A stretch of DNA of 64,000 bases from Spirochaetota bacterium (GCA_016214035.1 JACRPF010000012.1:3051-67050); one strand, 5' to 3'; counted from the first letter of the stretch, positions 5,830-63,530 are shown. The notes: a model not told the origin generated them from the sequence alone. Translations and numbers: made by a program.

Positions 5830-5836
5830 GCCGCAT

Positions 5837-8763: not shown

Positions 8764-8811
8764 CGGTTTTATTGAAGGTGCGGATATATATCCGCGCCTT
8801 CAATAAAACCG
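8764..8811. repeat. REP-like 48-nt palindrome (copy 1)
   Basis: The arms CGGTTTTATTGAAGGTGCGGATAT | ATATCCGCGCCTTCAATAAAACCG are reverse complements with a single T/C mismatch. The core is GAAGG(T/C)GCGGATATATATC(C/T)GCGCCTTC. Confidence 0.8.
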
Positions 8812-21655: not shown

Positions 21656-21773
21656 CAGCCGTCGCCTCACGCATGACTTTGTGTCTGTTGAATTTTTATA
21701 GTACAGGAACAGATGATATCTGTCAATGCGCATCATGAACCCGCCCGTCCGGATAAAAACGCGCGGGTAATGT

Positions 21774-27676: not shown

Positions 27677-27836
27677 CCGCGCCGGATGCGCGACAATAAC
27701 GTGTGGAAAAACCCTGCCCGCGTACGCCAGCGCAAGCCGTGGGGCAGGATGCCCCGAGGTGAGCGGCGGCAAGGATGCCGCGCAGCGAACGATGCCGGAT
27801 GCATCGCGAGAGCGACAATAATTCAGATAAAATACG
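27677..27836 (+). repeat. dispersed intergenic repeat family, copy A (longest)
   Basis: Shares three modules with 42247..42360 and 56171..56280: a (A)GCGCA-loop-TGCGC hairpin plus GACAATAA; CCCGCGTACGCYAGCGCMAGCSGT; and GGATGCNNCGCGAGMGCGACRRTAATTA. Copy A has extra internal GATGCC units. Confidence 0.6.
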
Positions 27837-42246: not shown

Positions 42247-42360
42247 AAGCGCATGGATGCGCTGCAATAACGTGGAGTAAGCTATATCCGCGCTATCGCC
42301 GAGCGCAAGCGGTGCTGGATGCCCCGCGAGAGCGACGATAAATTATCTAGATAATTTACG
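42247..42360 (+). repeat. dispersed intergenic repeat family, copy B
   Basis: AGCGCAT-GG-ATGCGCT hairpin plus GCAATAA, then ..CGCCGAGCGCAAGCGGTGCTGGATGCCCCGCGAGAGCGACGATAAATTA. Lies between the convergent metK and channel genes. Confidence 0.6.
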
Positions 42361-43880: not shown

Positions 43881-45761
43881 ATGGAAACACCCGCACGAAA
43901 AACACTGTTACCTCTGAGCGTCGGCGCATTGGGCGTGGTCTTTGGTGACATCGGAACATCACCGTTATACACCCTTCGCGAGTGTTTTTCACCGCAGCAC
44001 GGCCTTTCATACACATTTCCGGACGTTGCGGGGATATTATCGCTTGTTTTCTGGGCGTTGACGCTTGTCGTCACGGTAAAATACGTCACCTTCATCATGC
44101 GGGCGGACAATCAGGGCGAAGGCGGCATTCTCTCGCTGCTTGCGCTTATTATAGGCAATCGTGACATCAAAAAGACCGTTTTCCCCATCGTCGTGGTGGG
44201 TCTTACCGGTATGTCGCTCCTCCTCGCAGAAGGCATGATAACGCCGGCTATTACCGTGTTGAGCGCCGTTGAAGGGCTTAAAATGGCCGCGAGCGGCATG
44301 CAGCCGTTCATTATACCTATCAGCATCATCATCCTTATTGCGCTGTTCTTCATTCAGCGGCGCGGCACCGGTTTTATCGGCGTGATATTCGGGCCGCTCA
44401 TGATAGTCTGGTTCCTGTCTATCGCCGCACTCGGCATCAATTCCATCATCAAATCGCCTGAAATACTCTGGGCTGTCAATCCCTGGTTCGCGATGCAGTT
44501 CTTTATGACGCATAAAATAGCCGGCGTATTGGTGCTCGGCGCCGTAGTGCTTGCCATCACCGGGGCGGAAGCGCTGTATGCCGACCTCGGCCATTTCGGG
44601 AAATCACCGATACGGCTTGCATGGCTCGCGCTCGTTTTTCCATCACTCGTCCTTAATTATTTCGGGCAGGGAGCCGCGGTGCTCCGTCACGGCGAGGCTG
44701 CCGTTGCCAATCCTTTCTTCTATATCGCGCCGTCGTGGGCGCTTTTTCCGATGATAGCTATCGCAACCATCGCCGCGGTGATTGCTTCTCAGGCGCTCAT
44801 ATCCGGGGCTTTCTCTCTGGTGCAGCAGGCAATGCAGCTCGGGTATGTACCTAAGATGAAAATCATTCACACGTCATACGCCACACACGGTCAGATTTAT
44901 ATGCCGGTTATCAACTATTTTCTCATGTTCGCATGCATCTTCCTTGTCATGTTTTTCCGCTCATCGAGCAATCTCGCCTCCGCATACGGTATTTCCGTCA
45001 TGGGGACGATGACCTGTACAAGTATTCTTTTTTTCATCATGTCGCGGCAGGTATGGCGCTGGCCGCTGGCGCTGAGTATGGTCATCTGTATGGTTTTTTT
45101 CGTCGTGGACGGTACGTTCCTGTCCGCCAATGCGAATAAGGTGATGAGCGGCGGATGGTTCCCTGTTGTCGTTGCCATAGTGTTTTTCACGGTGATGCAG
45201 ACCTGGAAGCGCGGCAGTACGGAAATACACCGCATCATGTCCGCGGGAAGCGTTCCGTTCGACAATTTTCTGAACGGCCTCGCGCACAAGCAGTACGCGG
45301 TCACCCGTATACCCGGCACCGCGGTGTTCATGATCGGCAACCCGAAGAACAAGCTCAGCGTACTCCTGCATCACCTCAAACACAATAAATCCCTGCATGA
45401 GTCGGTTATCCTTCTCTCATTCGCCTTTGATAAGGTGCCGTCGGTGGCGCGCAGTGAACGGTTGTCTATCGTGCGTCACATTGAGGGCTTCTGCGAGATC
45501 CGCGCGCGCTTCGGCTATATGGAATCGCCGCGTATAGATGAGGTCATCGAGCTTTGCAATGAGAACGGCTTCACGCTGAACGTGTATCAGCTGAGTTTCT
45601 TTGTGGGCAGGATCAGTCTCAGCGTCAGTGAAAAGCCGGGCTCCGGCAATTGGCCGCGGCGGCTTTTCCGGTTCATGCACCGGAACGCGGAATCGGCCAT
45701 CGATTATTTCGGCATACCGCCCGGACGCGTTATTGAAGTCGGCACGCAGATAGAACTTTGA
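43881..45761 (+). CDS. kup: KUP/HAK/KT potassium uptake protein (copy 1)
   Basis: 626 aa. GALGVVFGDIGTSPLYTLRECF and RADNQGEGGILSL. Confidence 0.9.
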   Translation: METPARKTLLPLSVGALGVVFGDIGTSPLYTLRECFSPQHGLSYTFPDVAGILSLVFWALTLVVTVKYVTFIMRADNQGEGGILSLLALIIGNRDIKKTVFPIVVVGLTGMSLLLAEGMITPAITVLSAVEGLKMAASGMQPFIIPISIIILIALFFIQRRGTGFIGVIFGPLMIVWFLSIAALGINSIIKSPEILWAVNPWFAMQFFMTHKIAGVLVLGAVVLAITGAEALYADLGHFGKSPIRLAWLALVFPSLVLNYFGQGAAVLRHGEAAVANPFFYIAPSWALFPMIAIATIAAVIASQALISGAFSLVQQAMQLGYVPKMKIIHTSYATHGQIYMPVINYFLMFACIFLVMFFRSSSNLASAYGISVMGTMTCTSILFFIMSRQVWRWPLALSMVICMVFFVVDGTFLSANANKVMSGGWFPVVVAIVFFTVMQTWKRGSTEIHRIMSAGSVPFDNFLNGLAHKQYAVTRIPGTAVFMIGNPKNKLSVLLHHLKHNKSLHESVILLSFAFDKVPSVARSERLSIVRHIEGFCEIRARFGYMESPRIDEVIELCNENGFTLNVYQLSFFVGRISLSVSEKPGSGNWPRRLFRFMHRNAESAIDYFGIPPGRVIEVGTQIEL

Positions 45762-45788: not shown

Positions 45789-47693
45789 ATGTCTTCTGAT
45801 ACAGGCAATGATTCGCTGAAAAAAGCGATAGCCCCGCTGAGTCTCGGCGCGCTTGGTGTCGTATTCGGCGATATCGGCACATCACCGCTCTATACGCTTC
45901 GCGAGTGCTTTAAACCGGCGCACGGGCTTACATTCTCGTTTCCCGATGTTGTCGGTGTCGCCTCGCTGATATTCTGGGCTATCGTAATGGTGGTCGTGGT
46001 GAAATACGTCGTGTTCATCATGCGGGCGGACAACCAGGGCGAGGGCGGCATTCTTTCACTGCTCGCACACATTATCCACAGCAGCAGTCCGGATCAGAAA
46101 AAATCGAAACGATATTCGCTGATCATCATCGTTGGGCTTGTCGGTACTGCGCTTCTGCTTGCCGACGGTATGATTACACCCGCTATCAGCGTACTCGGCG
46201 CTATCGAGGGATTGAAGACCGCTTCGCCCGGTTTCGAGCGTTATATCGTACCGCTTGCCATTGTCATATTGACCGCGTTATTTCTGTTCCAGCGCAGCGG
46301 TACCGCACGCATCGGTATTGTGTTCGGTCCGGTCATGGTTATATGGTTTCTGACAATAGGAACGCTCGGTCTCGTGTCCATCATCCGTTCGCCCGAGGTG
46401 CTCTGGGGTCTTAATCCCTGGTACGCGGTGCGTTACTTTCTTATACACAAGATTGCCGGTGTGCTGATACTGGGCGCGGTGGTACTGGCGATAACCGGCG
46501 CCGAAGCGCTTTTTGCCGATCTCGGTCATTTCGGGAAACGGCCCATCCGCATAGCGTGGTTCGCGCTCGTGTTTCCGGCATTGATACTCAATTATTTCGG
46601 GCAGAGCGCCGCGGTGCTCCGTGACGGTGCGGCTGCTATTGTGAACCCGTTTTATTATATCGCCCCGTCATGGGCGCTGTACCCGGTCATCATCATCGCG
46701 ACCGCAGCTGCGATCATCGCATCGCAGGCGCTCATTTCCGGCGCTTTTTCGCTCGTGCAGCAGGCGATGCAGCTTGGTTATGTGCCGAAGATGAAGATCG
46801 TCCATACCTCGTTCGATATGCACGGCCAGATATACCTGCCGACGCTCAATTATTTTCTCATGGCAGCCTGTATCTTTCTGGTACTTTTCTTCAAATCGTC
46901 TGATAACCTCGCGTCGGCTTACGGGATATCGGTCATGGGGACGATGCTGTCGACGACGATCCTGTTTTTCGTTGTGACGCGTCAGGTGTGGCGCTGGAAG
47001 CTCATCGCGGCGCTGCCGGTATGTCTGCTCTTCTTTGTTGTTGATGCACTGTTCCTTTCGGCGAATATTTCCAAGATCGTGACGGGCGGATGGTTTCCGG
47101 TGCTGGCTGCGGTCATTTTTCTCACGATGATGCAGACCTGGAAGCGGGGCAGCCTTGAGATATACCGTGCCATGTCGGTTGCCAATGTGCCGTTCGATAA
47201 TTTTCTCAACGGACTTGCCGGCAATCAGTATGATGTGACGCGTCTCTCGGGTACGGCGGTGTTCATGATCGGCAACCTGAATAACAAGCTCAGCGTGCTC
47301 CTGCATCATCTGAAACATAACCGTATGCTCCATGAGACGGTTATCCTCATGTCCATCGTATTCGAGCGTGTGCCGTCGGTTTCGCCGGGGCAGCGTCTTG
47401 ATATCAAGCGATATCAGGAGGGGTTTATCGAGGTCCGCGCACGCTACGGTTATATGGAATCACCGCGCATGGAGGATATCATCGGCCTTCTGAACACGAG
47501 CGGTCTGTCGCTGAATATCCATCAGATAAGTTTTTATGTCGGTCATATAAGTCTTGCCATTTCAAAAAGATCCAAGGCCGCGTGGGGCCGGCATATTTTC
47601 CGGCTCATGCACCGTAATGCGGAATCGGCCATCGATTATTTCGGCATACCGCCGGGACGCGTTATTGAAGTAGGCACGCAGATAGAACTGTAG
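45789..47693 (+). CDS. kup: KUP/HAK/KT potassium uptake protein (copy 2)
   Basis: 634 aa. Same motifs as copy 1; tandem paralogue 27 nt downstream. Confidence 0.9.
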   Translation: MSSDTGNDSLKKAIAPLSLGALGVVFGDIGTSPLYTLRECFKPAHGLTFSFPDVVGVASLIFWAIVMVVVVKYVVFIMRADNQGEGGILSLLAHIIHSSSPDQKKSKRYSLIIIVGLVGTALLLADGMITPAISVLGAIEGLKTASPGFERYIVPLAIVILTALFLFQRSGTARIGIVFGPVMVIWFLTIGTLGLVSIIRSPEVLWGLNPWYAVRYFLIHKIAGVLILGAVVLAITGAEALFADLGHFGKRPIRIAWFALVFPALILNYFGQSAAVLRDGAAAIVNPFYYIAPSWALYPVIIIATAAAIIASQALISGAFSLVQQAMQLGYVPKMKIVHTSFDMHGQIYLPTLNYFLMAACIFLVLFFKSSDNLASAYGISVMGTMLSTTILFFVVTRQVWRWKLIAALPVCLLFFVVDALFLSANISKIVTGGWFPVLAAVIFLTMMQTWKRGSLEIYRAMSVANVPFDNFLNGLAGNQYDVTRLSGTAVFMIGNLNNKLSVLLHHLKHNRMLHETVILMSIVFERVPSVSPGQRLDIKRYQEGFIEVRARYGYMESPRMEDIIGLLNTSGLSLNIHQISFYVGHISLAISKRSKAAWGRHIFRLMHRNAESAIDYFGIPPGRVIEVGTQIEL

Positions 47694-51142: not shown

Positions 51143-52411
51143 TCAGAATATCATATTCTGTGCCAGCAGAACAAGAAACCCTGCAACATATCCCGCCGCC
51201 GCAAGCGGACCGATCCGCTTCAAGTACCAGAAGAATTCTATTTTCTCCATACCCATTGCGGCGACACCGGCTGCCGAGCCGATGATAAGCATACTGCCGC
51301 CCGTACCCGCCGCATACGCGAGCATCTGCCAGAATGCATGGTCAACCGGATACACCGCATGCGGATACATGCTTATCACCGCCGCGACGATGGGGACGTT
51401 GTCGACTACCGACGATAGGATGCCGATGCAGAACAGGATGATATTCTGTTCCTTGAATGTAGATGAAAGCATATCCGCCGCATGCCGGAGAATGCCTGCC
51501 GCTTCAAGCGATGCCACCGCGGTGAGTATGCCCAGAAAGAATAGAATACTCGTGGCGTCGATGCGCTGCAGGGCGTTCGCCACTGAAAGTTTTGTCCGGT
51601 AGTCGTATTCCTTGCCGCGGTGCATGACCTCGGTGATGATCCAGAGCACGGAAAGGCCCAGGAGTATCCCCATATACGGCGGCAGATGCGTCAGCGATTT
51701 GAATACCGGTATGAATATCAGCGCGCCGATGCCCGTGAAGAAAACGATATTCTTCTCAAGTGACACGATGTCTTTGCGTTTCTCGGGCGGTTGTCCCGGA
51801 ACGCCGCCGCGCATGCCGATTGAAGCGATGATGAGCGGTACGAGCAGGCAGGCAAGGCTCGGCAGAAACAGATGCGTGATGGTGTTCATCGATGTGATGT
51901 TCCCGGCTATCCAGAGCATGGTGGTGGTCACATCGCCGATGGGGGACCATGCGCCGCCCGCATTCGCCGCGATGATGACGATGCCGATGAAGGTGAGGCG
52001 GTCATTGCGGTCATCCACCAGCCGGCGCGTCATCGATGTCATGACGATGGCCGTGGTGAGATTGTCGAGGACGGCGGAGAGGAAGAACGTCACGAAACCG
52101 ATTATCCACAGGAGCAGCCGTTTGTTCTTCGTCCTGATGCGCGAGGTGATGACGTCGAAGCCGTTATGCGCGTCGATGAGCTCTACGATGGTCATCGCCC
52201 CGAGCAGGAAAAAAAGAATTTCGGAGATTCCCCCGAGATGTTCCCTGAGTGAAACGATGATGCTGTGACGTTCCGGCGAAAACACGATGAAGATGACCCA
52301 TGTCACTACGCCGGTCAGAAGCGCGCTTGCAGCCTTGTTGATATGTATGCCGTTCTCAAGAGCGATGAAAAGATAGCCTACGATGAAGATAAGGATGATG
52401 ATGGTTTCCAT
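51143..52411 (-). CDS. nhaD: NhaD/ArsB-superfamily Na+/H+ antiporter (copy 2)
   Basis: 422 aa. METIIILIFIVGYLFIALENGIHINKAAS. Colinear paralogue of 20384..21655. Confidence 0.85.
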   Translation of the reverse strand: METIIILIFIVGYLFIALENGIHINKAASALLTGVVTWVIFIVFSPERHSIIVSLREHLGGISEILFFLLGAMTIVELIDAHNGFDVITSRIRTKNKRLLLWIIGFVTFFLSAVLDNLTTAIVMTSMTRRLVDDRNDRLTFIGIVIIAANAGGAWSPIGDVTTTMLWIAGNITSMNTITHLFLPSLACLLVPLIIASIGMRGGVPGQPPEKRKDIVSLEKNIVFFTGIGALIFIPVFKSLTHLPPYMGILLGLSVLWIITEVMHRGKEYDYRTKLSVANALQRIDATSILFFLGILTAVASLEAAGILRHAADMLSSTFKEQNIILFCIGILSSVVDNVPIVAAVISMYPHAVYPVDHAFWQMLAYAAGTGGSMLIIGSAAGVAAMGMEKIEFFWYLKRIGPLAAAGYVAGFLVLLAQNMIF

Positions 52412-52520
52412 GTTGTTGCAGCCCGCAGTATTTGTTGTGGGGCAATAGTACAGGAGTACCGGGGTTTGTCAACCTGACATTGAAAAAAATACGCATATCC
52501 GGATTATGTGAATGAATTTA

Positions 52521-52549
52521 TTGACATGTGAATGGGTTTCAGGTATAGT
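52521..52549 (+). promoter_or_regulatory. sigma-70-type promoter for nhaA
   Basis: TTGACA (52521-52526), 17-nt spacer, TATAGT (52544-52549). The ATG at 52556 sits at the expected transcription start. Confidence 0.55.
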
Positions 52550-52555
52550 GGACAT

Positions 52556-53911
52556 ATGAAGATAAAAAGAACGCCTCCGACACTCATCAGCAAGCGCGAT
52601 CGCCTGCCGGTGGATTATTTACTTCATCCGTTTCAATATGTCACTCGTGAGGAGGCATTCGGGGGCGTTTTGCTTATCGCGGCAACAGTTGTCGCACTGG
52701 TTCTGGCAAATTCTCCATGGAAGTTGCTTTATGATTCGATGATCGAAAGTAAATTTTCCATCGGATTTTCATGGTTCGGGCTGAAAATGTCCCTGGGGCA
52801 TTGGATTAACGACGGCCTTATGGCGCTGTTCTTTTTTGTCGTGGGGCTTGAGATCAAACGTGAAGTGTTTGTCGGGGAACTTGCATCCGTCCGGCGTTCG
52901 GCGCTGCCCATAGCGGCGGCGCTGGGGGGGATGCTGGTGCCGGCCGCGGTATACCTCGCCATAAATGCGGGACAGCCCGGTATGCGCGGCTGGGGGGTGC
53001 CGATGGCGACCGATATCGCGTTTTCCATCGGCGCACTCGCGCTCATGGGTAAACGCGTGCCGCTGGGCGTCAAGGTTTTTGTCACCGCACTTGCAATCGT
53101 CGATGATATCGGGGCGGTGCTCGTTATAGCCGTATTTTACACCGGACAGTTGTCGTGGCAGCCGCTCGTGGTGTGCGGACTTTTTCTGGGCATGCTTGTC
53201 GCCGTGAACAGGCTCGGGGTCCGGCATCCGCTCGTGTACGGCATTCTCGGGATATGTCTGTGGGTGGCGATGCTGAAATCCGGCGTGCATGCAACCATCG
53301 CGGGGATACTCACGGCGGTGATCGTTCCCTCACGCTCACGCATCAATGCCCCCGCATTCATCGAAGATAACCGGCTGTATATGAGCGAGTTCAAAGCGGG
53401 CGAAACGGGTGACGGACTCGTGCTTACCAGTAAACGCCAGCAGGCGGCGCTGCGCGCGCTTGAGACCGCATGCGGGAACGTGCAGTCTCCCATGCAGCAG
53501 CTTGAGCATGCCGTATTGCCGTGGGTGCGCTTCATCATAATGCCGCTTTTTGCGTTCGCGAATGCCGGTATAACGGTTACCGGAAACACCGTTTTTGCGA
53601 TGCAGCACCCCGTTGCCATAGGTATCATGGCCGGGCTTGTATTCGGTAAGCCCGCCGGCATCACCCTGTTCTCATGGATAGCGGTGCGTGCCGGAATTGC
53701 CGAGCTGCCGGCCGGTGTGGCGTGGCGTCATCTTATTGCGGCAGCGATGGTGGCGGGCATCGGATTTACAATGTCGCTCTTTATTGCGGAACTTGCGTTC
53801 AAGGATACACTGCTTCTCGACACCGCGAAAATAGGTATTATGCTGGGTTCGTTCATCGCCGCTGTTGCGGGGATGGCGGTTCTCCGGCTCGTTACGCGGC
53901 GACAGACATGA
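52556..53911 (+). CDS. nhaA: Na+/H+ antiporter NhaA
   Basis: WINDGLMALFFFVVGLEIKRE and the ALAIVDDIGAVLVIA (DD pair) motifs. The start is set to the ATG at 52556 because the ATG at 52532 lies inside the promoter spacer. Confidence 0.85.
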   Translation: MKIKRTPPTLISKRDRLPVDYLLHPFQYVTREEAFGGVLLIAATVVALVLANSPWKLLYDSMIESKFSIGFSWFGLKMSLGHWINDGLMALFFFVVGLEIKREVFVGELASVRRSALPIAAALGGMLVPAAVYLAINAGQPGMRGWGVPMATDIAFSIGALALMGKRVPLGVKVFVTALAIVDDIGAVLVIAVFYTGQLSWQPLVVCGLFLGMLVAVNRLGVRHPLVYGILGICLWVAMLKSGVHATIAGILTAVIVPSRSRINAPAFIEDNRLYMSEFKAGETGDGLVLTSKRQQAALRALETACGNVQSPMQQLEHAVLPWVRFIIMPLFAFANAGITVTGNTVFAMQHPVAIGIMAGLVFGKPAGITLFSWIAVRAGIAELPAGVAWRHLIAAAMVAGIGFTMSLFIAELAFKDTLLLDTAKIGIMLGSFIAAVAGMAVLRLVTRRQT

Positions 53912-54014
53912 TTGCACGAGCGTTTCATGTGTAAAAATGTGCAGGATTTTTCTTTTTCGCCGTATATCATTTTATATAGTGTAATACTGCCTAAAGGGAA
54001 ATACTTCTATCAAT

Positions 54015-54042
54015 TTGACATCCCGTGTGTCGGGAATATAAT
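54015..54042 (+). promoter_or_regulatory. sigma-70-type promoter with palindrome in the spacer
   Basis: TTGACA (54015-54020), 16-nt spacer, TATAAT (54037-54042). The spacer contains TCCCG-TGTGT-CGGGA. Confidence 0.55.
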
Positions 54043-54081
54043 ACAAGGTATGTTTTTGGCGACTGAGAAAAAGGACTAACC

Positions 54082-54939
54082 ATGCCGCAAAAAAGAATTA
54101 TTGTCACCTTGGTCGTTATCATTGCCGCGCTCTCAATAGCAGCCACCGGTCTTGCTCTTTTCTCCGGAGGCGGTGCGGAGCCATCAAGCATCACGTCCGT
54201 ACGGGGGCAGCCGGTTGTACTCTACGGCAAAGGCCTCTACCATCACATGAGCGCTGATGTTGCGGTGCAGGGCATTGCGCAGGATTGGGTAACCCTCTGT
54301 CTCGGCGTGCCGTTGCTTCTTCTCTCGCTTCTGTTGTCCCTTCGCGGTTCCCTGCGTTGGCGACTTGTACTTTCCGGAACTCTTGGATACTTTTTTGTCA
54401 CCTATCTGTTTTATCTGGTCATGGCGATGTACAATCCGCTGTTTCTCGTATACACAGCACTATTGGGCACAACGTTTTTCGCGCTTGCCTTTGCACTAAC
54501 GTCATTCGATTTGAACCATCTGGCGAGGAACGCGAATCCCGCGGTATCCGTCAAAGTCGCTGGTATATTCCTGCTTGTAAACAGCCTGCTCATCGGTATG
54601 CTGTGGATGAGCGTCATTGTACCGCCGCTAATTGATGGCAGCATATACCCTCGTTCTCTTGAGCACTACACGACTCTCATCGTCCAGGGATTTGATCTCG
54701 GGCTGCTCCTTCCGCTATCGGTATTCTCCGGCGTTCTGCTCATTCGTCGTAGTCCTCTCGGCTTCCTGCTCGGTCCTGTCTATCTCGTTTTTCTTTCATT
54801 GCTCATGACCGCCCTGGTTTCGAAAATTGCATTCATGGGTTCGCAGGGACAGCCCATTATGCCGGCAATTTTCATAATTCCCGTGCTTGCTTCGGGCGCC
54901 ATTTATTTTTCGGCGCGTCTCATTCGAAATATTTCATAA
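54082..54939 (+). CDS. polytopic membrane protein, unknown function
   Basis: 285 aa and about 7 hydrophobic helices. No recognisable motif. Confidence 0.6.
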   Translation: MPQKRIIVTLVVIIAALSIAATGLALFSGGGAEPSSITSVRGQPVVLYGKGLYHHMSADVAVQGIAQDWVTLCLGVPLLLLSLLLSLRGSLRWRLVLSGTLGYFFVTYLFYLVMAMYNPLFLVYTALLGTTFFALAFALTSFDLNHLARNANPAVSVKVAGIFLLVNSLLIGMLWMSVIVPPLIDGSIYPRSLEHYTTLIVQGFDLGLLLPLSVFSGVLLIRRSPLGFLLGPVYLVFLSLLMTALVSKIAFMGSQGQPIMPAIFIIPVLASGAIYFSARLIRNIS

Positions 54940-54981
54940 CAATGCGGTTCGTATTCTAATTTATATTGAAGGAATAAGTCA

Positions 54982-55713
54982 ATGAATCAGGTTCAAGTCT
55001 TTGCCAACAGCCGTTTTGTTTTCTGGATGGCCTTTGCCTGCGCTGTGACAACACTCGTCACGTTCGCCATTGCAATCATGACCCCGCCTCTTTCGGGTCC
55101 TTTTTGTAAAGCCGGTTGTTTTCAATATCCTTACCTTGACATTGCCTCCCGATTTCCGCGGGATTATTACTGGATGTTCCCTGCCATGATTTCGAACCTT
55201 TTTTTTGTGGCATTGATGGTAGGCCTGCATTATCGTGCAGAGGCCTGCCGCCGGGTTTTTTCGATGTTTGCCCTGATAATCTCATCCATGTCGGCACTCG
55301 TGCTCATTGGGGATTACTTTGTGCAGGTGTCGGTCATACAGCCAAGCGTACTGGCGAAAGAATCTGACGGTGTTTCGCTTCTCACCCAATTTAATCCCCA
55401 CGGTCTGTTTATCGCCTTGGAAGAACTGGGCTACCTCCTGATGAGCCTGGCCATGGCAAGCATTGCATTTGCCCTTTCCAAAGCATCGCTTCTTGAGAGG
55501 GTTGTGCGGTGGATTTTCATCGGTCAAGCGGTGCTTGCCATTGTGCTGCTCGTAACGATTGCGGGATTCATGGGGCATGCACGAGAGTATGTCTTTGAAG
55601 TGGCGATCATTTCTGTAGCCTGGTTGGCGCTCATTGCAGGCGCAGGTATGCTTTCTGTGGTGCTTCGGAGAGATATTCCACGAAAGGCTGAACGAATACA
55701 GCAAAGGCAGTAA
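54982..55713 (+). CDS. polytopic membrane protein, unknown function
   Basis: 243 aa and about 6 hydrophobic helices. Follows the previous gene by 42 nt. Confidence 0.6.
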   Translation: MNQVQVFANSRFVFWMAFACAVTTLVTFAIAIMTPPLSGPFCKAGCFQYPYLDIASRFPRDYYWMFPAMISNLFFVALMVGLHYRAEACRRVFSMFALIISSMSALVLIGDYFVQVSVIQPSVLAKESDGVSLLTQFNPHGLFIALEELGYLLMSLAMASIAFALSKASLLERVVRWIFIGQAVLAIVLLVTIAGFMGHAREYVFEVAIISVAWLALIAGAGMLSVVLRRDIPRKAERIQQRQ

Positions 55714-55715
55714 CG

Positions 55716-55949
55716 TACGTTTTTCATATAGACGGACGACCCGGGGCCGTGATCGGCATTGAAACATCGGGCGAATATCTGGATTTGAAACCACATGGCC
55801 ATATGATCGTGACCGATGGATTGTATACGCCCGGCGGTACATTCTATCACATGCCACGCTGCGATATTCGCGCGCTTCGTTCGGTGAAACATATCTTTCT
55901 CGAAAGACATTTTCTCCTTCACTACGCGTGCTCATGCAGAGAATATTAA
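55716..55949 (+). pseudogene. internal fragment of an IS91/ISCR-like (Y2, HUH) rolling-circle transposase
   Basis: The in-frame translation ..GAVIGIETSGEYLDLKPHGHMIVTDGLYTPGGTFYHMPRCDIRALRSVKHIF.. resembles the HUH-region block of Y2 transposases (..QTFG..L..HPH.H.LVTDG....G.F). The N-terminal and catalytic-Tyr parts are absent. Confidence 0.5.
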
Positions 55950-55985
55950 ATGTCAGGGGGTAAGGTTCGACGTGTCGTTATAGAT
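55866..55985 (+). repeat. ~120-nt direct repeat, copy 1 (transposase-fragment tail plus ~60 nt)
   Basis: ATTCGCGCGCTTCGTTCGGTGAAACATATCTTTCTCGAAAGACATTTTCTCCTTCACTACGCG...ATGTCAGGGGGTAAGGTTCGACGTGTCGTTATAGA aligns with 60087..60205. By eye roughly four-fifths of positions are identical, with one divergent ~15-nt block. Confidence 0.75.
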
Positions 55986-56170
55986 TTGCTAGATATCATC
56001 CATTATCGGCACATAACATTACATGAATACTAACAGAATTGGCCTCTAGGCGAGGATATTGAACTATTATTTGATACGCTACTCCCTCATGCATCAGCGT
56101 ACTCTCTGCTAGTTCCTGCCCATTCATACGCGGACGTGAAAGACATTTACAAAAACTTAATAGTATCCAG

Positions 56171-56280
56171 AACGCGCACGATGCGCGACAGAAAAAGAGA
56201 GCAAACCTTGCCCGCGTACGCTAGCGCCAGCGGTACCGGATGCACCGCGAGCGCGACGGTAATTATGTGAAAATAAAATC
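56171..56280 (+). repeat. dispersed intergenic repeat family, copy C
   Basis: CGCGCA-CGA-TGCGCG hairpin plus ACAGAAAAA, then CCTTGCCCGCGTACGCTAGCGCCAGCGGTACCGGATGCACCGCGAGCGCGACGGTAATTATG. Confidence 0.6.
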
Positions 56281-56525
56281 TTACTCTATCACATATAATC
56301 CAATATTGCCGCCTCAGTTTCTCTACAGCAGCCGTCCCGGTTGTTTTCCATTCATCTGCTATCGGCTCATAGATCAAGCATAGCCCAATTCTTTGCGCAC
56401 ATGCGCTGTACGTCTGTTGCAGCTTTTTCGTCACATACCCGCATCAGCTTATTCATAAGATGATCTTCAAGATGGGATATGGCTGCAGAACGCCCACGAT
56501 TGGTTATTGTCTGTTCTTCCCTTTT

Positions 56526-59500
56526 TCAGGGAAATACGATTTCAAAGAACGGTGTGGCATGTATTAGCCGGGCTGTATCGAGCGTTAGCGACAAGATGCC
56601 ATTGGTGAAATCGCCCGATACACGTTCCGCGCGGCTGCCGTCCATATTGAGCGCGTAAATTACGGGGGCAGCAACGTGCTCTGTTTTCATCCGAAGCGAC
56701 AGACGTGCTGTTTCCATAAGTACGGGTAGCGTGCCGATTTCGGCGCAGAGCATGCGGGAGGTACTATCAAATGTCATGCCGGTATTCAGCGCATCGGTGG
56801 CGAAAATGAGCAGCTGCCGTTTGGCCGCTGCGATCGGCTTATCCTGATCAATCGACGCGACGGTAATGGATGCTGGCGCGGTGCAGCCCTCGATACGCAC
56901 ACTGCCGAGATTTATCTGTTCGTTTTTTTTCACTAAGGCGCCGACAAGCCGCGGGGTAATCACCATCAGCTTTCCCGCTTTTCCATCGAGTGTTATCTCG
57001 CCGGTTTCACTCTGATATATCCGAGCTTCCGGGTCGGTGCGGTTGCCGGCGGTAATGATGCCTGCCTGCCGCAATTGCTCGAGTAACGACGGGAATATTT
57101 TTTCATCGGAGGAGGACGCGCTGATGAACATGGCTGACACGCGGAGCGGGGAGAATGATGCCGGTGTTACCGTAAGTTCCGCATGCGCGGTGCCGACGGG
57201 AATGAGCGGCTGAACATCGGGGTACACGATACCGATTTTTGTCAGCATCGACAGTTGCGCATAGTCGTCGCCGATGGCGGCGAGATAGTTTTTGGGAAAC
57301 AGATCGCTGTCGGAAACACTGATGGCCACGGTGTGCGGTGCTGTGGCAACATCACCCCGTCCCCAGGTAAGGCGTTCCACGATGTCGGAAGCCCGCGAAA
57401 TAGGATCGACGGCATTGTCAAAAGTTATGAACGGCAATGACGTCGTGCGCGGTGTTGCCGTGACCGTGCCGTGTGTCGTCAGGCTGTCCCATCCCTGCAG
57501 CGCCGCATATGATCCGAAAAACAACCCACGTTCGTGACGATAGCGGTTGAACGCCGCGTGCGAATGTTCGGTGATCAAGAAAGGACGATCGAGAAACCGT
57601 GCCGCGGCGACTGAACGCACATACGGTGAATACGCTGCATGCAGTGAGCTGTCCTGGTGTGTCGATATATCGATGTTGGTATCGCCGCATATTTTGTTCC
57701 AGTTCGACGATTTCGCCGCGAGTTGTTTTGATGGCACGTTCTGCGGATGCGCGAAGTATGTGTGCTGGGCGATGACGGGCATTTTTGCCCGCACGGGAAT
57801 TTCCATCGTCCGGATTATCATGTCCCACTGACTGATGAGTCCGCCGTAACCGATTTCCCGCAGTGTGGCGACATACCAGTCGGTGGTCTCCTGCATTGCT
57901 TGTATGAGAAATGTCCCCGCGTCGCGCGACCGCGCATCGCCTTTTCTGAGCAATTCTTCGGAAATCTCCGGCAATACATCCCGTGAGGCGGTAGTGTCTC
58001 CCCACGCGGTACGTAACGCCTCGTCCGTTGTGTAGCGGTTCCTGATATACTGATGGAAATGCAGTGAATGAACTCGCATCGCGTTGGTGTCGAACAGAAG
58101 AATGTCCTGCTCATTGTACGGTTCAAGGAGAGCGATAATCGGATCGTCCTTGAGCGCGGTGCCCGTATAGGGATTTTTGTGGTTGAGCAGATACGCGGCA
58201 CCGGCTGCCCAGTGGCGACGATAGTTCGTGTCGTAGAGGAGTTGCACTTTAAAGGTAAGATCGCTACGGATCTTTTTCGGGCGCGGAGTGATGAATCCGT
58301 CTGCATAGCTCATGATGTCGAGGTTCAGGTAAATGCTGTGCTTTTTCAGGCAGGCGAGGAGATAGTCGAACGTGTCAATTGCGGCTGCGTCGAACGCAAT
58401 CGGATTGGCATCGCTGTTTACCATGAACGCGGTGAAGTCGGGCGCGTTCTGGAATTGTTTCATGCCGAGCAAAAAACGGTTCCCGGCCTGAAACCGGACC
58501 ATCGTATATCCCTGCCGCGCAGTTGCAGCGGCAAATTCCTCAAGTTCATCTTTGGAACGTGTATAGAGCGATCCGTCCCAATATTGCAGCCAGGTGTTAT
58601 GGGCGTGAAAACGCACCTGACGGTCGGGATGGCGTTCGAACGCGAGCCTGCCTGCGGTGTTGACGATAACCCGTCCTCGTCCTTCCACCGTTTCCGGAAT
58701 ATTCGCCATACGGGAAAAATCGAGCGCGGTGCCCGGTTGTACCATGAGGTTGTTCATGTTCACCGCTTTCCATGCCGCGCCGGGTTTGACGATAAATATA
58801 CCGCTGTCGCCGGGCGCACGGGTCGGTTTTCCGCAGATGAATTTCCACCCCGCCGAACCGCTCAGTACTTTTATCGCGATGAGATTCGTTCCCGAGCGTA
58901 CCGGCACATCGATGATATGATCGTTGACGGTGAAATCATGCGTTTCGTTTCCCCGGGGAACAGTACCGAATACCTTATCTCCGTTCATATAGACTTCAAG
59001 CCACCAGTCGGCGGCTACACCGATACGCATTTTACCCGAAAACGGTGCCGTGAATTGCTGATAGAAAACGGCACACTTCTTTTCTCGTACAGGTCCGAAG
59101 CGCTGCGCAAGATCGATCGCACCGCCCATAAGACGTATCGTTTGTGCCTGCCGCCCGGTCTGCGAGCCGGGTGATGTATCGGGCATTGATGAGTAATCGT
59201 CAGGCTGCGGTACATCGACAAACGCAAGCCAGTCTTCGGATAGCGAATAGGAGAGCATCTGCTCCGCTTCCGACAGCGATGCGGGGCCGAAGTACAGTGT
59301 CGCCGGTTCCGTGCCGAATTTTGCAAGCATGAAACGCGGTATTCCGAACGTACCGGTGCTGTCGTCGTCTGGGGTGAAAGAAAGTTTCATAGTTTGCCAT
59401 TCCGTCGTAACGGACCGTCCCGTCATCGAGCCGAACATCTTCCACGTCCCCGTCTGGTCGGGCACGAGCATGATGTCCCCCGTCACCGATGCCCTGCAGG

Positions 59501-59795
59501 TAAAAACGATGTCGTAAGTCTTCCCCGCCCGCAGTGTTCCAGTAAACAGTAATCGAAGTTGTACATCCCAGGGTGTTGTTGTACTCCTGAGTTTCTGCAG
59601 ATGTACGGCAAGTACGGATTTTCCGTCGGGCGTTTTTTCAGGGGCGATGTTCATGGTGACATCATTGCCCTTTGCGGGGCTGAGACGGATGTCGTTCAAT
59701 CCGTTCATATCCCATGTTTTCAGGGGTGCCGCGAGAAGCAGGCTAATGCCGGCAATGAATCCATACGCAACTGCAAGCTTTTTTTTCATGTTCAT
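56526..59795 (-). CDS. secreted multidomain putative glycoside hydrolase (CBM4/9-like N-terminus, clan GH-A-like TIM barrel)
   Basis: Trimmed to MNMKKKLAVAYGFIAGISLLLAAP (ATG at 59795). The N-terminal beta-sandwich segment resembles CBM4/9. The central barrel has ..ALLEPYNEQD.. (an NE acid/base-like motif). The function call is tentative. Confidence 0.8.
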   Translation of the reverse strand: MNMKKKLAVAYGFIAGISLLLAAPLKTWDMNGLNDIRLSPAKGNDVTMNIAPEKTPDGKSVLAVHLQKLRSTTTPWDVQLRLLFTGTLRAGKTYDIVFTCRASVTGDIMLVPDQTGTWKMFGSMTGRSVTTEWQTMKLSFTPDDDSTGTFGIPRFMLAKFGTEPATLYFGPASLSEAEQMLSYSLSEDWLAFVDVPQPDDYSSMPDTSPGSQTGRQAQTIRLMGGAIDLAQRFGPVREKKCAVFYQQFTAPFSGKMRIGVAADWWLEVYMNGDKVFGTVPRGNETHDFTVNDHIIDVPVRSGTNLIAIKVLSGSAGWKFICGKPTRAPGDSGIFIVKPGAAWKAVNMNNLMVQPGTALDFSRMANIPETVEGRGRVIVNTAGRLAFERHPDRQVRFHAHNTWLQYWDGSLYTRSKDELEEFAAATARQGYTMVRFQAGNRFLLGMKQFQNAPDFTAFMVNSDANPIAFDAAAIDTFDYLLACLKKHSIYLNLDIMSYADGFITPRPKKIRSDLTFKVQLLYDTNYRRHWAAGAAYLLNHKNPYTGTALKDDPIIALLEPYNEQDILLFDTNAMRVHSLHFHQYIRNRYTTDEALRTAWGDTTASRDVLPEISEELLRKGDARSRDAGTFLIQAMQETTDWYVATLREIGYGGLISQWDMIIRTMEIPVRAKMPVIAQHTYFAHPQNVPSKQLAAKSSNWNKICGDTNIDISTHQDSSLHAAYSPYVRSVAAARFLDRPFLITEHSHAAFNRYRHERGLFFGSYAALQGWDSLTTHGTVTATPRTTSLPFITFDNAVDPISRASDIVERLTWGRGDVATAPHTVAISVSDSDLFPKNYLAAIGDDYAQLSMLTKIGIVYPDVQPLIPVGTAHAELTVTPASFSPLRVSAMFISASSSDEKIFPSLLEQLRQAGIITAGNRTDPEARIYQSETGEITLDGKAGKLMVITPRLVGALVKKNEQINLGSVRIEGCTAPASITVASIDQDKPIAAAKRQLLIFATDALNTGMTFDSTSRMLCAEIGTLPVLMETARLSLRMKTEHVAAPVIYALNMDGSRAERVSGDFTNGILSLTLDTARLIHATPFFEIVFP

Positions 59796-60086
59796 TATCC
59801 CTGCTAGTATTTGGTAACTATATCCGCCCGTTTTATATTGATATACGTTATGATCGCACCAAAGACCGTTTCGGCAATCGCATTCTTTCCCGCGTTTCGG
59901 AATGCTCGATGACGTCGTTGTATGCGGATGCACATTACTCCTAGATATTCTAGGATATCGAATAATCTTATTGTACTATAAAATGGAAAAAGGTGCTATA
60001 AGAATTTGCCTACTTTCTATAAATATTTCTTGATGCAACATAACCGCCGCGTCAAGCCACGTGTGCGGCCGGTTGGCCGGGCAGGT

Positions 60087-60205
60087 ATTCGCGCAATTCG
60101 TTCGGGGAAAAACATCTTTCTCGAAGTACATTTTCCCCTTCACTACGCGCGCTCACTATAGTAAAAAGTAATGTCAGGGGTAAGGTTCAATATGTCGTTG
60201 ATAGC
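60087..60205 (+). repeat. ~120-nt direct repeat, copy 2
   Basis: ATTCGCGCAATTCGTTCGGGGAAAAACATCTTTCTCGAAGTACATTTTCCCCTTCACTACGCG...ATGTCAGGGGTAAGGTTCAATATGTCGTTGATAG. Translates as IRAIRSGKNIFLEVHFPLHYARSL*, against IRALRSVKHIFLERHFLLHYACSCREY* in copy 1. Confidence 0.75.
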
Positions 60206-60540
60206 AGTGCGTACGCCGCACCGAAGAAGTACACCTGTTATCCAATCGTGCGAACGCACCGCCCGAAGGTGAGTTCGCTTATTTTGAACAACAGGGATGC
60301 TTCCCGGAATGTAAATAATTCCCAACGGAATGCCAGTCATGTAACGGGAATTCTTAATAATCTCAATTGAACACCCTGATTTCAGCATTGAACGTATTGC
60401 CTTCGACTGGGAATGCAGCGCCTTCGGCCGCATGAAACGCAAAGAGCACGGGGTTTTGGTCACTGAGCGGTTTGCGCTGAGTGCTGTCGAAGCGAGTCGA
60501 AGTGCGACCCCGTGTGTGTCACGCGATATACCTACACGCA

Positions 60541-60635
60541 GGCGCGGTCACGCGGTCCCCGAGCTTAGTCGAGGGGTGACCGCGCCAGCGGCAATCACGA
60601 ATGCCGCCCCGCCAGAAGAATGCGATATAAGCTCT
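60541..60635 (+). repeat. GC-rich hairpin plus partial (3' half) copy of the dispersed repeat family
   Basis: 11-bp stem GGCGCGGTCAC...GTGACCGCGCC (60541-60551 / 60576-60586). The following GCGCCAGCGGCAATCACGAATGCCGCCCCGCCAGAAGAATGCGATATAAGC parallels GCGCCAGCGGTACCGGATGCACCGCGAGCGCGACGGTAATTA of copy C. Confidence 0.4.
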
Positions 60636-60800
60636 GCACCGAGGAGCATTCGGGCTTTGGCGGGCTTGTCGAACCATGAGCCGGTGCTCTGCAAGACGCG
60701 GGCCTGCTCCGTAATCGAATATACCCGGAAACTGCTTGCAAATTTCGGTGCGGTGTACAAGCGAATGAACGTGCGCGTATCTACCCGCCTAAGATAGGTC

Positions 60801-63530
60801 TCAGCGTACATGCGGTGAAACCGGCCTGCGTTTTCGCAGCCGGTTGCGGATGAATTTCTCGGCGGCAACGATGACCATGATGAGGGAGCTTGCGCCGATC
60901 ACCATCCCCCAGTCGATAAGCGATATCGGCGCACTGTGAAATGCGGTGTTCATGAACGGGACATACGTGAACGCGATCTGCAGGAGGAGCATCAGCAGAA
61001 CCCCGAGCCAGAGCGGCGGGTTGGAGAACATGCCTACGGAAAACACCGATAGACGGAGCGAGCGGCAGTTGAACAGATAGAAGATCTCGCCGAAAACGAA
61101 GATGTTGACGGCAATAGTCCGCGCCGCCGCTTCCGGCTCGCCGCGCGAAAGTGCTATCTCATACGCGATGAACGACGACGCGCACAGCAGTGAACCGACG
61201 GTGATGATGCGTGCGATGAGCGGCTTCGTGAGTATCGGCTCACCGGGCGCCCGCGGCGGACGTTCCATGATGCCCGGCTCCTTCGGTTCAAAGGCGAGCA
61301 TCAGCCCGAGCAGTATTGCGGTGGTCATGTTGATCCAGAGTATCTGAACGGGAAGGATGGGGAGGGCGATGCCCATGATGACGGCGATGAGGATGACGAG
61401 CCCCTCTCCGAAATTCGTGGGCAGTGTCCAGGTGATGAATTTCACCAGGTTGTCGTATACGCCGCGGCCTTCCTCAACGGCGGCTTTGATGGTCGCGAAG
61501 TTATCGTCCGTGAGCACCATGTCCGCGGATTCCTTGGCCACGTCGGTGCCGGTGATGCCCATCGCTACGCCGATGTCCGCCTGTTTGAGCGACGGCGCGT
61601 CGTTGACGCCGTCTCCGGTCATCGCAACGACATTGCCGTTGTGCTGCAGCGCACGGACCAGTCTGAGCTTGTCCTCAGGTGATACGCGGGCGAACACCGA
61701 GACCGTTTTGACCACGTCGGTCAATTCCCCGTCGCTCATCGCCGCTATTTTTTTGCCGTTGAGCGCGGTGTCCTTCGGTGCGGCGTCTGCAACTACGATG
61801 CCTATCTTCTGCGCAATGGCGAACGCGGTGAGCTCGTGGTCGCCGGTGATCATCTTCACGCTGATGCCGGCGCGGCGGCAGTCCGCAACCGCGGCAACGG
61901 CTTCCGGCCGCGGCGGATCGATCATCGCCTGCAGCCCGAGGAATGTCAGCCCGCTCTCGATATCCTGATGCGCCAGACGGCCGTGCGACGGCGGCATGCG
62001 CTTTTCCGCAAGCGCCAGCACCCGTAATCCTCCGGATGCGTACGAAGCAGCCGCGGTATGGATTGCTTCCCTCCCGGCATCGGTAAGCTCCGCGCGCGCG
62101 AGTATGCTCTCGACCGATCCTTTCACGCAGCAGATGCGGTCCGTGCCGCCGGTTTCATGCAGCGTTGCCATATACTGATACTGGGATTCAAAGGGAATGG
62201 CGTCGATGCGCGCGTGACGGCGTTCGTATTCCGGACGATGCACGCCGGCTTTTTCTGCGGCGACGATGAGCGCACCTTCCGTCGGATCGCCCTCGATGAT
62301 CCATCGCCCGTCTTTCTGCACCAGCCGTGAGTCGTTGCAGAGCGTCCCCGCGGCGAATATGCGTTCGAGCACGGGTATATCCGCCGCCCGGATAACGGCC
62401 GCATCTTTCATCACCGCGCCTTCCGGCGTGTACCCCACGCCCGTGACCTCATAGCGCGCGGCATCGGTCCAGACGCTCACCACGGTCATCTGATTCTGCG
62501 TGAGCGTTCCCGTCTTGTCGGAGCATATCACGGTGGTGCTCCCGAGTGTCTCAACGGCCGGAAGTTTTCTGATAATTGCATGCCGGCGCGCCATCGTAGA
62601 TACGCCTATGGCAAGCGTGATGGTGAGCGCCGCGGGCAGCCCTTCGGGAATGGCGCCGACGGCAAGCGCAACCGATGCCATGAACATTTCGATCACCGAT
62701 GAGCCGCGGTAGATCCCGACGGCGAAGGTGACGGCGGCGAGCCCGAGTATCACATACAGCATGAGCATGCTCAATCTGCCGAGCAGTCTGGTGAGCGGCG
62801 TTTCCAGCGAGACCGCGTTCGAGATCATCGCATTTATTTTTCCAATTTCGGTCGCATCGCCGACCGCGGTCACTGTCCCGGTGGCAGTGCCGTAGGTGAC
62901 ATAGGTGGAGGCGTATGCCATGCAGGTCCGCTCCGCGAGCACCGCATCGGGAGCCGCCGCGGTACTCGTCTTCTCAACAGCCACCGATTCCCCGGTGAGC
63001 GCCGATTCATCGATGCTGCAGTCACGCACGGCGATAAGCCGGAGATCAGCGGGTACCTGATCGCCCGACTGGAGCAGTACGATATCGCCTACGGTCAAAT
63101 CCCGTGCATCGATCCGCCGGCGGATGCCGTCGCGCAGCACCGTAGCCTCTTTGGTGACCGCCCGGGCCAGCGCGTCAATCGCATTCCGCGCACGGTATTC
63201 CTGCACGAATCCGATGACCGCATTGACAAACACCACGCCGAAGATCACCAGAGAATCCACAAGCTCTTTGAGCACGGCGGTAACCGTCGCGGCAACGATC
63301 AGGATGACGACGAGCGGCTGATTGAACTGCATAAGGAACAGCACGACAGGCGGGGTATTCCTTTTCCTGGTGAGCGCATTCAGCCCGTACGTATGCTGCC
63401 GTTCGGTAACCGCCTGTCCGGTGAGACCGAGCTTCGGATCGACGCCAAGCTGCCGGCAGACGGCACTGCCCTCCTGGTGATGGAACGGATCCGTCTTTTC
63501 CGCGGTATCGTTGGGTAGTATGTCAGGCAT
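60801..63530 (-). CDS. P2-type cation-transporting P-type ATPase (Ca2+/Na+-type)
   Basis: CSDKTGTLTQN phosphorylation site, TGDGVNDAPSLKQADIGVAMG hinge, and TM4 IPEGLPAALT. The start is set to the ATG at 63530 (MPDILPND, SD GAGGA); the track start at 63611 is a TTG. Confidence 0.9.
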   Translation of the reverse strand: MPDILPNDTAEKTDPFHHQEGSAVCRQLGVDPKLGLTGQAVTERQHTYGLNALTRKRNTPPVVLFLMQFNQPLVVILIVAATVTAVLKELVDSLVIFGVVFVNAVIGFVQEYRARNAIDALARAVTKEATVLRDGIRRRIDARDLTVGDIVLLQSGDQVPADLRLIAVRDCSIDESALTGESVAVEKTSTAAAPDAVLAERTCMAYASTYVTYGTATGTVTAVGDATEIGKINAMISNAVSLETPLTRLLGRLSMLMLYVILGLAAVTFAVGIYRGSSVIEMFMASVALAVGAIPEGLPAALTITLAIGVSTMARRHAIIRKLPAVETLGSTTVICSDKTGTLTQNQMTVVSVWTDAARYEVTGVGYTPEGAVMKDAAVIRAADIPVLERIFAAGTLCNDSRLVQKDGRWIIEGDPTEGALIVAAEKAGVHRPEYERRHARIDAIPFESQYQYMATLHETGGTDRICCVKGSVESILARAELTDAGREAIHTAAASYASGGLRVLALAEKRMPPSHGRLAHQDIESGLTFLGLQAMIDPPRPEAVAAVADCRRAGISVKMITGDHELTAFAIAQKIGIVVADAAPKDTALNGKKIAAMSDGELTDVVKTVSVFARVSPEDKLRLVRALQHNGNVVAMTGDGVNDAPSLKQADIGVAMGITGTDVAKESADMVLTDDNFATIKAAVEEGRGVYDNLVKFITWTLPTNFGEGLVILIAVIMGIALPILPVQILWINMTTAILLGLMLAFEPKEPGIMERPPRAPGEPILTKPLIARIITVGSLLCASSFIAYEIALSRGEPEAAARTIAVNIFVFGEIFYLFNCRSLRLSVFSVGMFSNPPLWLGVLLMLLLQIAFTYVPFMNTAFHSAPISLIDWGMVIGASSLIMVIVAAEKFIRNRLRKRRPVSPHVR

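Follow-up and report, generated by a model that had tools for sequence, protein, structure and literature searches.

How did a direct repeat of about 120 nt come to bracket the gene of a large glycosidase-like protein beside the debris of a transposase? The locus that raises this question spans positions 55,716–60,205 of a 64-kb stretch of DNA, hereafter the window, from a metagenome-assembled genome (MAG) of a "Spirochaetes bacterium", where the open reading frame (ORF) at 55749–55949 corresponds to HZC28_10755 on a 73-kb contig. A preliminary description had derived the two repeats from an IS91/ISCR-like transposase remnant and had considered them as possible ends of that element. Our analysis supports the presence of IS91-family insertion sequence (IS) remnants. 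The repeat itself, termed R in the following, was not shown to descend from the transposase and, to judge by sequence comparison, rather represents duplicated flanking DNA. We lean, if only with modest confidence, towards viewing the arrangement as the inert scar left by an old, IS91-associated capture or duplication whose traces have by now decayed completely.

The repeat pair and its edges

55865–55985, no strand assigned: R_A, repeat copy A (repeat search, blastn, global alignment)
60086–60205, no strand assigned: R_B, repeat copy B, in direct orientation relative to R_A (same basis)
56526–59795, minus strand: intact gene for a protein of 1089 amino acids (aa) with a CBM4-like part and a predicted clan GH-A-type barrel (Pfam, PDB search, AlphaFold, Foldseek, alignment)
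59796–60085, no strand assigned: AT-rich stretch preceding the glycosidase-like gene, presumably its promoter region, with no IS-related sequence detected (blastn of contig L031, which carries a fuller IS copy; flank comparison)

The direct repeat of ~120 nt and roughly four-fifths identity that had been noticed by eye is well founded. Blastn aligns 55865–55983 with 60086–60204 (121 nt, 81.8% identity, E = 7e-25). When the copies are aligned globally with gaps, identity is 80.5% across 123 columns, with 11 transitions and 9 transversions, and the local alignment score of 142 compares with 16.8 ± 2.8 for shuffled sequences (z = 44). The repeat search resolved two blocks, 55865–55934 versus 60086–60155 (70 nt, 87%) and 55957–55979 versus 60177–60199 (23 nt, 87%), and the longest perfect run shared by the copies is 13 nt. 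A 36-nt core of R, with up to 3 mismatches allowed, occurs only at the two R sites of the window (0 expected by chance). Further copies of the 120-nt unit, for which the preliminary description had suggested a search, were found neither in the window nor in GTDB representative genomes, a collection from which the MAG itself is absent, nor in JGI metagenomes, the only hits being two chance matches to a 22-nt pattern.

The unit is sharply bounded on both edges, and the flanks of R_B resemble neither those of R_A nor the IS; a weak ATAG..TGC similarity may lengthen R by ~8 nt at its right edge. On its left side, R_A abuts a plus-strand transposase piece carrying an HUH motif and overlaps the end of the transposase homology by ~6 nt (TATTCG), and its right edge lies 18 nt (or less) from the presumed 3' end of an inverted IS remnant. 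R_B sits just past the AT-rich stretch that precedes the 1089-aa gene, and it is contiguous on its right side with the non-coding spacer that leads to a P-type ATPase gene. Read along the minus strand, the order is thus R_B, promoter region, gene, the IS 3' part (the IS 5' part being deleted), 18 nt, R_A and the inverted HUH piece. Substitutions between the copies are not significantly clustered (p about 0.2). When read from the alignment in the transposase frame, R_A and R_B differ by 1 synonymous and ~9 non-synonymous changes, which argues that R has not been conserved as coding sequence.

The metagenomic source of the genome would lend itself to the explanation that the arrangement is an assembly artefact or a chimeric MAG contig. 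We consider the chance of this negligible, since window 52046–61559 (9.5 kb) recurs with 100% identity in L001, a Logan assembly built independently from run SRR12113407, so that the arrangement is not the product of one assembler, and since repeats of 120 nt with 81% identity do not mislead assemblers.

Remnants of an IS91-family element

55724–55870, plus strand: remnant of an IS91-family transposase that retains the beginning of Y2_Tnp with the HUH motif but lacks the remainder of this catalytic domain (Pfam, phmmer, clade profile, match to L031)
56003–56127, minus strand: IS91-family remnant, last transposase codons plus ~85 nt of 3' non-coding end (blastn to L031)
56128–56305, core 56166–56285, no strand assigned: array of GC-rich hairpins, of the repetitive extragenic palindromic (REP)/bacterial interspersed mosaic element (BIME) type, in a ~180-nt insertion relative to L031 (sequence comparison)
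56306–56432, minus strand: IS91-family remnant, two C-terminal coding pieces, 56306–56371 and 56379–56432 (blastn, BLASTP)

The plus-strand fragment, proposed at the outset to resemble the HUH-region block of Y2 transposases, lived up to that proposal. It starts 10 nt past the stop codon of a gene for a 243-aa protein, and its HUH motif reads H-G-H, with a degenerate middle residue. The translation of 55716–55949 reaches 20.2 bits against Pfam Y2_Tnp, just below the cutoff of 20.9 because only profile positions 1–36 survive. A phmmer search with the remnant against 1.84 billion representative sequences gave 185 matches at E <= 1e-3, headed, apart from the protein itself, by P0002 (3.9e-17, 62% identity) and P0003 (1.4e-14, 79% identity); all ten matches inspected were Y2_Tnp proteins, several of which also carry Zn_Tnp_IS91. 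A clade profile built from 65 relatives recognized DGRPGAVIGIETSGEYLDLKPHGHMIVTDGLYTPGGTFYHMPRCDIRALRS in the remnant with 80 bits (E = 1e-25). Judged by these sequence matches, 55724–55870 is a real remnant of an IS91-family (Y2/HUH) transposase. Of the double label IS91/ISCR, only the first half holds: the intact relatives P0024, P0176, P0178 and P0180 pass the NCBIfam model NF033538 (transpos_IS91) with 141–176 bits versus a cutoff of 125, but score only 104–134 bits, and the L031 piece 21 bits, against the ISCR model NF052416, whose cutoff is 925. The clade, found here in metagenomes of Spirochaetes, Planctomycetes and Verrucomicrobia, is distant from IS91 itself.

One of these matches, P0003, could be located on L031, a 585-kb contig from the same sample that belongs to the same MAG, as its neighbour gene is HZC28_03575. 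The intact genomic copy that one might hope for was not obtained: the L031 copy is fuller, but frameshifted into three ORF pieces (5057–5560, 5607–5996 and 6053–6301), and no intact IS copy with more than 81% identity to the fragment is present in the protein databases, which include this MAG. L031 retains Zn_Tnp_IS91 (in 5057–5560), Y2_Tnp and the tyrosine motif NYYGVYS, which is kept in the relatives as NYYG(V/E)YS. Both outer parts are missing from the window remnant, Zn_Tnp_IS91 since homology begins only 10 nt past the preceding stop codon, and the catalytic tyrosine pair (YxxxY) with the deletion of the region equivalent to L031 5526–5941. Comparison of the two same-genome copies by blastn yielded four matches:

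L031 5387–5525 = window 55731–55870, same strand, 84% identity
L031 5942–5995 = window 56432–56379, inverted, 83% identity
L031 6188–6257 = window 56371–56306, inverted, 80% identity
L031 6261–6385 = window 56127–56003, inverted, 71% identity, E = 5e-8

Identity of ~84% thus runs along 55724–55870 (L031 5379–5525) and then ends abruptly. The three inverted matches change the picture of the segment between the repeats, which had been taken for AT-rich junk and short broken ORFs: what lies there instead is the inverted C-terminal part and 3' end of the IS, which in comparison with L031 has lost 192 nt internally. The 95-aa 'ORF' at 56147–56434 is built from these C-terminal pieces, and the inversion was confirmed at the protein level (YEPIADEWKTTGTAAVE / YEPLADEWKATGTAAVE; BLASTP, 17/21 identical, E = 5e-11). 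Apparent junk beside a pseudogene can therefore be the inverted remainder of the same element. The two copies cease to be alike after ...GTGCCGATAA (window 56003, L031 6385), which is our best estimate of the IS 3' end; by analogy with IS91, the non-coding end at 56003–56127 would represent the oriIS side. The IS 5' end is absent from the window, where ~150 nt plus ~250 nt survive of an element of at least 1.3 kb. The minus-strand remnant is oriented like the 1089-aa gene and lies just downstream of it. The link of the segment to IS91-type DNA is hence stronger than originally claimed, as the IS 3' end falls inside it.

The minus-strand remnant is interrupted by the REP-like array, which the preliminary description had listed as repeat copy C and which is in fact a dispersed repeat at 56.2 kb, with further intergenic copies at 27678–27834 and 42250–42346. 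Members are built from short, GC-rich hairpins arranged in tandem, which carry a ...GGATGC... loop/stem motif. Since the 56.2-kb copy interrupts the IS91 remnant relative to L031, the family has been mobile. It resembles known REP/BIME repeats in forming GC-rich hairpin arrays at three or more intergenic sites of the window, one of them within the IS remnant, but it is unrelated to the bracketing repeat R.

A side observation concerns the surroundings of the fuller copy. On L031 (1301–6400), the IS directly follows a gene for a large (1187-aa) secreted CBM9/CBM4_9 protein and shares its orientation, so that both IS copies stand beside a large gene with carbohydrate-binding modules (CBMs); with n = 2, this may be coincidence or insertion preference. 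Paralogy of the two large CBM proteins was considered and rejected (BLASTP E = 0.15).

Relation of the repeat to the transposase and its ends

The preliminary description had derived the repeats from the transposase and had suggested that they could mark successive ends (oriIS/terIS) of an IS91/ISCR-like element, left behind by one-ended rolling-circle transposition. Several features speak for such a reading: R_A continues the open frame of the remnant, the tblastn match of P0002 reaches as far as 55940, some residues of R (A, K, I, E, Y) are matched to the family by MAFFT, and R lies 104–224 nt past the equivalent of the stop codon in the minus-strand copy, a possible place for oriIS if the L031 copy were truncated. 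Yet homology to L031, ~84% up to 55870, ends 6 nt into R. The remaining 115 nt of R_A, and likewise R_B, score 18 against the continuation of the fuller gene (L031 5526–5700), where shuffled sequences reach 17.6 ± 3. At the protein level, the peptide encoded by copy A scored –1.1 bits against the clade profile (78 of 400 shuffles were as good or better) and copy B gave no score. R as a continuation of the transposase was thus rejected on both levels, and with R at shuffle level neither the MAFFT residues nor the tblastn extension count as evidence of homology. If a reading frame stays open across a repeat, this is no evidence that the repeat descends from that gene.

The claim that the repeats mark IS termini fared no better. 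In either orientation, R resembles none of the 350-nt stretches that border the transposase gene on its 5' and 3' sides in L031, L032, L033, L034 and L036 (|z| <= 2.5 in 36 tests), among them those of L031 and three intact relatives, although the non-coding ends of relatives at ~60% aa identity may be too diverged for recognition. By this comparison R is not an identifiable oriIS or terIS end, and the reading as an IS terminus was rejected. R_B has no IS sequence on either side, R lacks significant hairpin structure, and the family is IS91, not ISCR. The idea that R_B is the tail of a longer duplication comprising the HUH fragment plus R was rejected as well, both flanks of R_B being at background level against the window fragment and against L031. 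All in all, we would give the derivation of R from the transposase or from IS ends little credence.

Still less probable, in our estimation, is that R is a functional cis element (a promoter/operator, a small RNA or a recombination/att site) that selection has maintained in duplicate, with copy B serving the glycosidase-like gene, which follows it on the minus strand at a distance of 290 nt. The 87% identity of the two R blocks, the position of copy B upstream of that gene and an 8-bp GGGGAAAA/TTTTCCCC stem in copy B would be in line with such a role. However, folding z-scores of +0.1 to –1.5 indicate no significant secondary structure in R, and the stem is not maintained by compensatory changes in copy A. 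Rfam yielded no match, and a promoter and terminator scan of R returned nothing meaningful, in particular no promoter-like site, except for a weak terminator-like match in copy B only. The differences between the copies are not clustered to a significant extent, copy A, taken in the minus-strand direction, faces the 3' end of a convergently oriented gene, no integrase gene lies nearby, and no R homologue was found in the genome and metagenome collections.

Origin of the arrangement

In IS91, tnpA is preceded by terIS and followed by oriIS, and one-ended transposition copies DNA beyond terIS (PMC13181058). The family targets a tetranucleotide of the GTTC/CTTG type that abuts oriIS, creates no target duplication, and has ends with subterminal palindromes (PMC13181058). 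The 4.2-kb unit studied here starts with R_A, followed after 18 nt by the 3' end of the IS, then by the gene, which is on the same strand as the IS and on its terIS side, and finally by R_B. Two direct repeats that are not themselves IS sequence thus enclose the IS together with a passenger, and the passenger is on the side that read-through would copy. This geometry would fit an IS-linked capture or duplication, and an IS-associated duplication would be the most likely origin of the R pair. Directly observed are the R pair, the pieces of the IS, how these are oriented and where they are joined, the absence of IS-like sequence from R, and a gene composition that is native. The order of events is inferred, and two routes can be envisaged. 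In the first, a one-ended rolling-circle event would initiate at the 3' end of the IS, proceed through the gene next to it on the upstream side and stop past R; the resulting circle of IS, gene, upstream region and R would then be rescued by homologous recombination with the chromosomal R, giving a-R-[IS...gene...]-R-b. Taken on its own, this circle and recombination step strikes us as doubtful. In the second, the R-bounded unit would be duplicated in tandem and one of the copies then lost, which would likewise result in an R at either side. Later on, most of the IS would have been deleted, the REP-like element would have inserted into the remnant, and the R copies would have drifted to about 81% identity. 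Signs of decay are plentiful, with HGH in place of HUH, a transposase in pieces, no intact copy above 81% identity, R copies that differ mostly by non-synonymous changes in the transposase frame, and R without a conserved fold or Rfam match.

Several points weigh against this IS-linked origin. IS91-family insertion itself makes no target duplication, so that the duplication of R demands an extra step, for which the circle rescue or tandem duplication would have to account. No GTTC/CTTG tetranucleotide is found next to the presumed IS 3' end in either same-genome copy, so that the analogy with the ends of IS91 is tentative for this clade. The plus-strand HUH piece beside R_A requires a second IS copy or one or more additional inversions; a single- or double-inversion history from one IS copy was considered and is not more parsimonious than two IS copies, as a single inversion works only if R first flanked the gene as inverted repeats, with a further 416-nt deletion. 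The glycosidase-like gene carries no compositional sign of import. R was searchable in ~74 kb of its own genome. Finally, the collections hold no close relative genome that could show an empty site or a single-R ancestor (relatives of the 243-aa flank protein reach at most 52% and those of the 1089-aa protein at most 48% identity), and the nearest relatives of both query proteins occupy unrelated genomic contexts.

A serious rival, though in our judgement an unlikely one, is a segmental duplication without any transposition: slippage, illegitimate recombination or unequal crossing-over would have copied 120 nt of intergenic DNA, the IS fragments being mere bystanders that decayed in the same variable region. 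R without IS similarity, a compositionally native gene, and an interval between the NhaA and ATPase genes that is a patchwork of several deletions plus the REP-like insertion are what such a history would leave. On the other hand, R_A meets an IS junction at each of its edges, overlapping it by 6 nt on the left side and lying 18 nt away from it on the right side, and the bracketed unit begins at the IS 3' end, which would be a notable coincidence if the events were unrelated.

As to present-day behaviour, the preliminary description had also raised the possibility that the segment is excisable by recombination between the repeats. Perfect runs of 13 nt are too short for efficient RecA-dependent homologous recombination, and with 13 nt as the longest identical run, excision between the R copies appears unlikely today. 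With its transposase in pieces, the structure is inert at present, however it arose.

How does the locus relate to known systems? With the IS91 family (IS91, IS801, IS1294) it shares a Y2_Tnp start with HUH motif and, on L031, the combination of Zn_Tnp_IS91, Y2_Tnp and the NYYGVYS motif; the window gene is also positioned on the terIS side in the same orientation, which is the side mobilized by one-ended transposition (PMC13181058). Unlike these elements, the window element is fragmentary, its ends are not defined, and GTTC/CTTG is missing beside its presumed 3' end. A second parallel comes from ISCR1 complex class 1 integrons, where, as in the window, duplicated non-IS flanking DNA brackets an element of the IS91 superfamily plus a passenger gene. 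For these integrons, the duplicated 3' conserved segment (3'-CS) has been proposed to stem from a rolling-circle product rescued by homologous recombination. The differences are substantial, however: the transposase is not of the ISCR type (104–134 bits versus a cutoff of 925), the repeat is on the IS 3' (ori) side with the cargo on the ter side, a mirror image of the integron arrangement, and the repeats are 120 nt long and 81% identical, with everything around them decayed. The remnants point to past activity of an IS91-family clade in this uncultured lineage of spirochaetes, a clade that has since died out in the genome as assembled.

The enclosed glycosidase-like gene

The prediction of a gene on the opposite strand for a 1089-aa protein with CBM and glycoside hydrolase (GH) parts was borne out in its essentials. 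The protein has a signal-peptide-like N-terminus and one or more CBM4-like modules (PDB 1k42, 8e-8). No curated GH family could be assigned: Pfam gave only a weak CBM_4_9 match, NCBIfam none, and the sequence matches in the PDB were confined to CBM4 modules. The AlphaFold (AF2) model, with a predicted local distance difference test (pLDDT) value of 82, led Foldseek to GH50 agarases, GH42 beta-galactosidases and GH5 mannanases at E values of about 1e-10 to 1e-8, the target-based TM-score (TMt) being 0.61–0.65 for the GH5 mannanases. N561-E562 and E743 are invariant in 16 homologues and may be the catalytic acid/base and nucleophile, respectively. We therefore predict an enzyme with a clan GH-A-like (beta/alpha)8 barrel. 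Its predicted fold and invariant NE...E residues resemble those of clan GH-A plus CBM4 hydrolases with GH5, GH42 and GH50 folds, but it falls into no Pfam or NCBIfam GH family and has ~10% identity to the structural matches. With ~25 homologues at 30–48% identity in Spirochaetes, Verrucomicrobia and metagenomes, it may represent an unclassified GH family, which may outweigh the repeat in practical interest.

Homologues of the protein sit in sugar-utilization loci together with GntR/AraC regulators, a rhamnosidase, GH4 and GH109; the window copy stands alone among ion transporters. In the composition and codon-usage check that had been suggested for 56526–59795, the gene was not marked as foreign: its GC content, third-codon-position GC content (GC3), codon usage and 4-mer signature are those usual in the window, which argues against a recent import.

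Neighbouring genes and other repeats of the window

54082–54939 and 54982–55713, plus strand: two membrane-protein genes, 285 and 243 aa (composition, homologue search)

This pair comprises the strongest compositional outliers of the window, with a GC3 of 0.54–0.56 versus 0.657 ± 0.046, a distance in relative synonymous codon usage (RSCU) of ~1.5 versus 0.84 ± 0.26, and a 4-mer r of 0.55. Neither protein has a Pfam domain. Homologues (42–52% identity) are scattered over Bacteroidales, Marinimicrobia, Chloroflexi and the candidate phyla radiation (CPR), and the two genes are adjacent in 5 of 26 loci. The pair lies directly upstream of the plus-strand HUH piece, on the same strand and on its terIS side, and is a candidate for horizontally acquired cargo. 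A bolder account would combine these observations, with the R pair marking the bounds of a one-ended rolling-circle capture in which a spirochaete IS91-family element took the upstream GH gene plus a 120-nt flank, the product being fixed by recombination at that flank, and with the foreign-looking membrane-protein pair as a second cargo of the same IS type. We regard this account as improbable. If true, the locus would be a fossil of gene capture resembling ISCR1 integrons and would extend ISCR-style capture to genes of carbohydrate-active enzymes (CAZymes) in non-proteobacterial environmental bacteria.

Other repeated sequences of the window include paralogous genes for CitMHS-family transporters at 20384–21736 and 51143–52411 (minus strand), which are 30.8 kb apart and share 77–83% nucleotide identity over ~1 kb, and tandem paralogous genes of ~630 aa at 43881–45761 and 45789–47693 (plus strand) with 73–92% nucleotide identity in blocks. 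A 48-nt repeat of the perfect-palindrome type, CGGTTTTATTGAAGGTGCGGATATATATCCGCGCCTTCAATAAAACCG, occurs at 8764–8811 and 9280–9327, its copies being 516 nt apart and 79% identical, and looks like a pair of strong hairpins or terminators around a short segment.

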